DNA of 64,000 bases from Escherichia coli (lineage in GTDB: Bacteria > Pseudomonadota > Gammaproteobacteria > Enterobacterales > Enterobacteriaceae). Position 1 is the stretch's first letter, and each line of letters begins with the position of its first letter. The stretch lies in assembly GCF_003018235.1 (NCBI RefSeq), contig NZ_CP027438.1; one strand, given 5' to 3'. Below, piece after piece: positions 44,233 to 44,800 of this stretch. The position numbers and the translations under genes are program-made. The notes beneath the pieces are model-generated. The model had not been told where the DNA came from. It ran no database searches and was given only the letters and a program-made list of their open reading frames with translations.

Positions 44233-44740
44233 TCATAAATATTTTTTAGATTGATCAACAGAGACATCCATTCTCTGAGCAGAATACTCATGACTATAAC
44301 CCAAAAGATACGGTATTATCTTATTAAAACGATATTTTTCGGATATACAACTAAACTCCTTTCCCTTTATAAAAAAGCTACCAACTACGTATCTTTCGAA
44401 AAATCTCCAGACAAACAAATAAAAGTTATTCACTTCCGCACTTTCAACTACCACATCCCATAACACATCATTCAATATTACACCATTAATAATGCTCACT
44501 CCATTCGAGGACGAAAAAGCATCAATTTCAGCAGTCTGAAATAAAACTTGCGTATCAATATCAATGCCAGAAAACCATATTTCAGAATCACTATTCTGAC
44601 ACTTTATTGATTGTAAAAAAAACAGAGTTTGAATCTATGAATTTTCCTGACTCTGTGCGGACACAGACTGGATATTTTGCGGATAAAATAATTTCGGTCA
44701 AACCTGATTGACGTATGAGTGCTCTTTCTCTAGTATCCAT
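44233..44740 (-). pseudogene. traJ: traJ-like transfer activator, split at an A8/T8 homopolymer
   Basis: ATG 44740 opens [17 protein letters not shown]...[19 protein letters not shown] then hits a stop; the frame shifts at the T8 run (plus A8 at 44615-44622) and continues to 44233. Confidence 0.45.
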
Positions 44741-44800
44741 CGCACCACATAGGAACCTCCTCAAAGGATTCTATGGACAGTCGATGTAGGGAGGTGGAAG
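44722..44800 (+). ncRNA. finP: FinP-like antisense RNA (approximate bounds)
   Basis: Antisense to the traJ RBS and start; 14-bp perfect stem GTCGATGTAGGGAG...CTCCCTACATCGAC followed by GATTTTTAAT. Confidence 0.55.

Follow-up and report, generated by a model that had tools for sequence, protein, structure and literature searches.

Frameshifted traJ beside intact finP and finO on a probable pB171-like IncF plasmid of Escherichia coli

The closest described system to the locus analyzed here is the FinOP-TraJ circuit of the F-like plasmids (F, R100, R1, R6-5), in which the genes follow the order oriT-traM-(finP antisense)-traJ-traY-traA. In the F plasmid, finO is interrupted by IS3 and traJ is intact, the reverse of what is found on the plasmid described below. 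DNA of the PY promoter is recognised by the C-terminal HTH of TraJ (PMC7555446), and PY needs both TraJ and ArcA against silencing by H-NS (PMC7303359). The tra genes of pMAR7 are missing from the EAF plasmid pB171 of EPEC strain B171 (PMC5684527). Loss of conjugation through mutations in regulators or structural genes is recurrent, and a plasmid can become less costly when its conjugation is reduced (PMC8764527, which cites earlier evolution experiments).

We analyzed 64,000 nucleotides of the E. coli contig NZ_CP027438.1 (assembly GCF_003018235.1), the whole of which is called the window. Its transfer locus has the gene order of the FinOP-TraJ circuit: traJ lies between traM and traY, FinP is antisense to the traJ leader, and FinP, the traJ 5' UTR and FinO are matched over their full lengths. 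The difference is that the activator is broken in the window and the repressor pair is intact. We consider it highly probable that the window represents a pB171-like, bfp-bearing (EAF-type) IncF plasmid, in which traJ is a pseudogene with three 1-bp indels and FinP and finO are intact. The coordinates of the features are collected in Table 1.

Table 1. Features of the window, with positions counted from its first nucleotide
Feature	Position	Strand	Remarks
isrN	13824-13967	(-)	Rfam, above gathering score
CopA	32173-32260	(+)	Rfam, above gathering score; IncFII-type replicon RNA
sok	33064-33221	(-)	Rfam, above gathering score
AS-pc02	38797-38981	(+)	Rfam, above gathering score
finO	39226-39792	(-)	Intact, 188 aa; NCBIfam NF010317 1-186/186, 353 bits (cut-off 136)
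Deletion scar	39847-41727	.	traB 5' remnant, IS3-family element, traX 3' remnant; then finO
traX 3' remnant	~39847-40330		Annotation of CP076711
IS3-family element	~40370-41589		Annotation of CP076711
isrC	40402-40524	(+)	Rfam, above gathering score; inside the IS3-family element that replaced tra genes
traB 5' remnant	~41590-41727		Cut after ~138 nt
Proximal tra block	41728-45327	(-)	All intact ORFs apart from traJ; order matches annotated relatives
traK	41728-42456	(-)	Intact ORF
traE	42443-43009	(-)	Intact ORF
traL	43031-43342	(-)	Intact ORF
traA	43357-43722	(-)	Intact ORF
traY	43774-43983	(-)	Intact ORF
Terminator-like hairpin	44077-44095	(-)	Just 3' of the native traJ stop
traJ pseudogene	44102-44750	(-)	Canonical ATG (44750) to native stop TAA (44104-44102); spans three reading frames
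traJ piece 3	44102-44241	(-)	Third frame; 46 native C-terminal codons, IFMKFKKHYGFSDRDEWLRYAII...CKEV
traJ piece 2	44233-44614	(-)	Second frame; native LQSIKCQ...VDQSKK, ends YL + TGA (44235-44233)
A6 run (coding strand; plus = T6)	44242-44247	(-)	A7 in relatives; -1 frameshift after K166, within predicted HTH recognition helix
traJ piece 1	44591-44740	(-)	49 codons from in-frame ATG 44740; N-terminal part of PAS domain
T8 run (coding strand; plus = A8)	44615-44622	(-)	+1 frameshift after codon 41, private to the window record
Promoter-like site for finP	44708-44736	(+)	TTGACG-17-TAGTAT, ends 8 nt 5' of FinP start; consensus match only
Out-of-frame start reading	44730-44750	(-)	ATG TGG TGC GAT GGA TAC TAG, 6 codons (MWCDGY-stop)
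finP antisense RNA gene	44744-44820	(+)	Rfam RF00107, 91.7 bits (gathering score 45), model 1-76/76
traJ 5' untranslated leader, FinP target	44745-44853	(-)	Rfam RF00243, 118.4 bits, model 1-109/109; includes Shine-Dalgarno GAGGAGG; folded
Promoter-like site for traJ	44858-44886	(-)	ATGACA-17-TATATT, 10/12; consensus match only
traM	44944-45327	(-)	Intact ORF
oriT nick-region-like sequence	45645-45675	(+)	TGTGTGGTGCTTTTGGTGGTGAGAACCACC

The window is pB171-like by shared features, namely a bfp-like cluster, CopA, hok/sok, a RelE/Phd-type toxin-antitoxin system (29733-30322) and a truncated tra region (PMC5684527, PMC2762410). From its gene sizes and the annotation of CP076711 (99.4% identity), the type IV pilus gene cluster (204-9735, plus strand) appears to be the bfp operon starting at bfpC, and it marks the window as an EAF-type plasmid. 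CP076711 (NZ_CP076711.1, O158:H23; L004/L005) is the nearest complete record, with 99.4-99.8% identity overall and 99.7% over 901 nt around traJ.

Of the genes expected in a self-transmissible F-type (MPF_F/MOB_F) plasmid, traB-traG, traD and the relaxase gene traI are missing from the window. Relatives with a complete tra region cease to be homologous to it at 41590, within traB, and nothing but an IS3-family element was found between this point and the traX remnant; the parts of this scar follow the annotation of CP076711 (99.5% identity). The near-identical CP076711 is typed in PLSDB as non-mobilizable, without relaxase. The sequence TGTGTGGTGCTTTTGGTGGTGAGAACCACC is a putative oriT nick region, probably similar to that of F and R100.

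The extent of traJ and its lesions were defined by alignment with intact homologues of 212 aa and 215 aa. Compared with CP076711 and two homologues at 92% and 90% identity, the canonical 215-codon gene is altered in the window by three separate 1-bp indels, besides which an N-to-Y substitution is found at 44421. The earlier note on this DNA had described a TraJ-like frame that opens at ATG 44740, stops after about 50 codons and, past the A8 run of the plus strand, is continued in a different frame. Translation of the minus strand bore this out: the first piece is native up to F41, continues as FTINKVSE and ends after 49 codons at TAG 44593-44591, and beyond the run the TraJ reading continues to TGA 44235-44233. 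The same note ended the traJ region at 44233, but this is a premature stop, and owing to the second frameshift the true end lies at 44102. The hairpin just downstream supports 44102 as the real end of the gene. A frameshift at A8 is thus present, as had been claimed, and the gene is dead as written; two further indels had been missed, however, and the A8 run is not the lesion that inactivated traJ in the lineage.

The NCBIfam model NF010276 (TraJ, 215 positions) matches the pieces in different frames, at positions 4-50 (82 bits) and at positions 85-170 (169 bits; ORF 44233-44499). The intact relative (P0002) reaches 452 bits over positions 4-215 and a 168-aa allele (see below) 350 bits, compared to a curated cut-off of 444 bits, and no single ORF of the window attains this score. 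NCBIfam was used instead of Pfam, which gave no match on traJ even at E = 10 with a set that was without a TraJ model. Among 1.84 billion representatives searched exhaustively with HMMER, full-length TraJ homologues had 203-239 aa and short matches were high-identity fragments, which disposes of the possibility, considered in the earlier note, that TraJ is naturally short on this plasmid. The identity of the window allele to other TraJ groups is only ~25-39%. Judged by these matches and by its position, the sequence descends from a TraJ gene, yet it encodes no TraJ protein.

The intact relative indicates what the lesions destroy. Its residues 13-116 match the structure of the F TraJ PAS domain (PDB 4kqd, E = 2.6e-10). 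In an AlphaFold model of intact TraJ, built on an alignment of 22 sequences (mean pLDDT 82.6), residues 14-118 adopt a PAS fold and, beyond a linker of low confidence, C-terminal helices lie at 139-145, 150-156, 161-175, 180-189 and 192-211, with pLDDT values of 88-95 for the helices 150-156 and 161-175. A single-sequence model (pLDDT 33) was discarded. Foldseek queried with the modelled protein returned 4kqd first (TMt 0.82, rmsd 1.6 Å), and the matches over the whole length were EL222 and VqmA, in both of which a PAS/LOV sensor is joined to a LuxR-type HTH. As in the FinOP-TraJ circuit, TraJ of the intact relative is therefore modelled as a PAS domain like that of F TraJ, followed by a predicted C-terminal HTH. 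In the window, T8 breaks the PAS dimerisation domain after residue 41. The native sequence of the C-terminal part ends at K166, and the A6 shift interrupts the predicted recognition helix 161-175 after its first six residues, just past the S-K of a conserved motif (G-F-S-H...I-S...S-K) that spans the break. The window sequence cannot encode TraJ with an intact PAS or HTH.

The A6 run was found in the window and in 8 other sequences, the Logan contig L013 included. The product expected from A6 without T8, a protein of 168 aa ending in ...SKKYL (P0001), is on record for 42 contigs according to an exact look-up in a collection of 15 billion proteins, and the A6 frameshift is reproducible because this exact product recurs. 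Over 1701 nt (traM-traY), seven assemblies with the 168-aa allele differ from the window only by one substitution and by the length of the T run. The domain structure, together with the literature on TraJ of F and R1, gives good grounds to expect that the 168-aa form is non-functional.

The extra G near the start of traJ is an insertion at 44745/44746, through which the canonical ATG 44750 is no longer in frame (ATGTGGTGCG in the window versus ATGTGTGCG in most homologues). GG is present in the window and in 18 relatives, CP076711 among them, and a single G in the readable homologues outside this sublineage. After the insertion, only ATG 44740 can open the frame, at a distance of 15 nt from the Shine-Dalgarno sequence GAGGAGG. 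For the otherwise intact product of 212 aa, the same exact look-up gave 18 contigs, and PGAP annotates this form as a normal CDS. On its own, the extra G might be no lesion, as the internal ATG 44740 might allow enough translation. Going by the records that share them, both the extra G and A6 are genuine, reproducible alleles.

The T8 run is different in this respect. In the alignment with TraJ relatives, the run has 7 bases in all three sequences compared (CP076711 and both more distant homologues) and 8 in the window, so that the insertion of one base is on the side of the window. T8 was found in the window alone, and the 48 further members of this traJ allele group all have T7. Metagenome contigs were scanned with a pattern open to T7 as well as T8, and the 27 matches were all T7; no T8-derived traJ fragment was found by exact-sequence look-up among 15 billion predicted proteins. 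The contig L013, seen in two sequencing runs (one of them SRR8930575), shares the otherwise unique N-to-Y change and is the same as the window over 1467 nt, save that it has T7. All of this agrees with a sequencing or assembly error, homopolymers being classic sites of single-base miscalls; the real plasmid would then have T7 and encode a 168-aa truncated TraJ, and traJ would still be a pseudogene. A T8 seen in a single record is indistinguishable from such an error, and we give this explanation substantial weight, somewhat short of an even chance. Against it, the window is otherwise clean: compared with L006 over 20.5 kb, it has 5 substitutions, one 19-bp deletion and one 3-bp deletion, and the additional base of T8 is the sole single-base homopolymer difference. 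Moreover, the window keeps traA, finO and an HlyD-family gene intact where CP076711 has them broken. Its other private differences, the base at 39772 and the 19-bp deletion at 37999, indicate a distinct isolate, which can carry private mutations, and a gene that is already inactivated is free to gather slippage mutations. With a G+C content of 42.6% and 67 homopolymer runs (A/T of at least 7, G/C of at least 6) in the window, the A8 run is unremarkable. On balance, we lean slightly toward recent slippage in a gene that had been dead before, rather than a miscall. The earlier note had considered that a corrected run length could restore one ORF. A run of A7 does join pieces 1 and 2, but the second frameshift still truncates the result to 168 aa, and changing T8 to T7 therefore does not restore traJ.

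CP076711 was dropped as sole arbiter of the A8 run owing to systematic under-calls of homopolymers in this record. The window and CP076711 are separated by 127 indels, mostly in homopolymers, and the window is the longer sequence in 110 of them and the shorter in 17, the direction of skew expected if the long-read assembly of CP076711 under-calls homopolymers. The annotation of CP076711 gives frameshifts in finO, traA, traX, the HlyD-family gene and a colicin gene; the window ORFs of finO, traA and the HlyD-family gene are intact at the same places. The pseudogene calls of CP076711 are untrustworthy and look like uncorrected long-read error. The 19 bp missing in the window at 37999 are present in L006, L007, L008, L011 and CP076711. 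The private base at 39772 is synonymous in finO, and the FinO protein is thus uninformative on private alleles in the Logan sample.

The earlier note had also stated that regulatory decay accompanies the structural deletion of the transfer region. The region is indeed deleted, but by the distribution of the alleles the decay does not simply go along with the deletion. The same traB'/IS junction occurs in A6 relatives (L006-L008, L011, L012) and in A7 relatives that have the untruncated 212-aa allele (CP076711, L059, L064). Conversely, A6 is found on L009, where tra continues at least into traC, and on L010/L049, where intact-looking traY, A, L, E, K, B, P, V, R, C, W, U, N, trbC, trbE and the start of traF extend over at least 19 kb. 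The extent of L049 through traF comes from one successful step of contig walking, the other exact-protein look-ups having mostly matched other plasmids. The contig ABVCCW010000029.1 (GCA_042290665.1) represents a presumably tra-complete plasmid with the 168-aa allele. All four combinations of A6 or A7 with the deletion present or absent therefore exist, the four-gamete test fails, and the A-tract must have changed repeatedly unless there was recombination between the plasmids. A full-length allele with the same deletion, and a truncated allele with intact tra genes, show that the truncation is not a by-product of the deletion. It follows that a single A8 frameshift, inactivating an otherwise intact traJ within the same decay as the tra deletion, is a very improbable account, even though this frameshift and the deletion are both present in the window: in addition to the allele combinations just described, two further lesions exist, and A8 is private while the deletion is common to many relatives with T7.

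A sister lineage of traJ (nine contigs; L051 7775-8423, L052 3528-4176) has the canonical start, T7 and A7, and it carries an independent insertion of A at CGTC[A]CTCG (codon 78), outside a homopolymer, which splits traJ into pieces of 87 aa and 140 aa. This traJ adjoins a tra operon that reaches traC or beyond; one of the contigs, from a metagenome, has 69 kb. Altogether, four independent frame-breaking indels are found in one nearly identical traJ clade (extra G, A7 to A6, T7 to T8, and extra A at codon 78), and two of the four sit on plasmids with long, intact-looking tra operons. One could speculate, with little confidence, that the shut-off of traJ has been selected repeatedly in these virulence-type plasmids and that the regulator is lost before the machinery, or else that the A-tract is a hypermutable and possibly reversible switch of transfer.

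Related to this is the notion that slippage on T8 and A6 still yields some active TraJ, or that the runs are reversible on/off switches of transfer-gene expression. Both lesions do lie in A/T runs of 6-8 that are able to slip, all four combinations of A6 or A7 with the deletion exist, and the sister lineage has a further independent frameshift. We nevertheless regard this notion as extremely improbable. Two independent slips would be needed in one transcript, the frameshift of the sister lineage is outside a homopolymer, and the T run is stable, with T7 in 48 of 49 sequences. The transfer apparatus is gone, which leaves nothing to regulate, and for the same reason, together with the need for two separate slips, programmed frameshifting was rejected as the main reading. 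What the window contains is ordinary gene decay, on a plasmid already without most of its transfer machinery; the system is a known one, and there is no departure from known biology.

The repressor side of the circuit is retained. FinP has a stem-loop I at 44748-44775 and a stem-loop II at 44780-44814 with 14 perfect pairs and a 7-nt loop, followed by a GAUUUUU tail, and a terminator-like site is present. Its fold has a free energy of -36.9 kcal/mol (z = -6.6). This fold and the full-length match to RF00107 confirm the hairpin with a perfect 14-bp stem that the earlier note had described. With a score above the gathering threshold, two stem-loops, a terminator tail and a position antisense to the traJ ribosome-binding site, where it overlaps GAGGAGG, the RNA has the expected features of a predicted FinP. 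Promoter-like sites such as the one listed for finP number 7 in the region, compared to 5.1 expected by chance. The intact finO reported in the note was likewise recovered, as a full-length match to NF010317 with 188 aa. Pfam recognises both domains in the full-length protein, FinO_N with 128 bits and ProQ/FinO with 93 bits. The window FinO protein is the same as that translated from L007; in the longer ORF, the window and L006 are identical.

Stem-loop II differs in two details from the homologues at 92% and 90% identity (L002/L003). One pair is T-A versus C-G, a compensatory difference, and the loop reads CTTCCAC on the traJ strand in the window versus CTTGTCC in the homologues. These differences within 44780-44814 point to what may be a distinct specificity allele of FinP.

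In the mechanism that we propose, traJ would originally have encoded an activator of the PY promoter composed of a PAS domain and a LuxR-type HTH. The extra G, five bases past the canonical ATG and common to the whole sublineage, would be the first lesion. The second, A7 to A6 in the recognition helix of the HTH, is a real and widespread allele and would leave a protein of 168 aa whose DNA-binding domain is incomplete; the third, T7 to T8 in the PAS domain, belongs to this record only and would cut the product to 49 residues. The sharing of alleles suggests that the extra G came first and was followed by A7 to A6, then by the N-to-Y change at 44421 and then by T8. Without functional TraJ, PY would be expected to stay silenced and the leftover genes traY-K not to be activated. 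Self-transfer would be impossible anyway, as traB through most of traX is gone, and finP and finO would have no useful target in cis. In trans, FinOP could repress an F-like plasmid in the same cell, FinO acting non-specifically and FinP presumably only on a matching allele. The oriT-like sequence, traM and traY could permit mobilisation by a compatible helper.

For annotation, traJ should be entered as a pseudogene from 44750 to 44102 with three lesions, the A8 run being flagged as unverified. From its gene content, the plasmid would be described as non-conjugative, possibly mobilisable via oriT, traM and traY, and as a possible fi+ partner for F-like plasmids through FinO. The bearing of the locus is on how conjugative plasmids become non-conjugative, and beyond annotation it otherwise adds little. 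The same recurrent outcome, loss of conjugation, is represented by further virulence plasmids with decayed transfer regions and by non-conjugative plasmids evolved in the laboratory. The only point of mild interest is that traJ is broken repeatedly and independently of the structural deletion, also on plasmids that keep their transfer genes.

Two minor observations concern other parts of the window. The GAA repeat at 48383 has one unit fewer than in L006. In the leading region, a DUF932 gene (46547-47281, minus strand) is split into two ORFs of 119 aa and 111 aa. The split is also present in L006 and L012, and more distant relatives have one CDS of 273 aa at this place; the DUF932 gene is probably another lineage-wide pseudogene.
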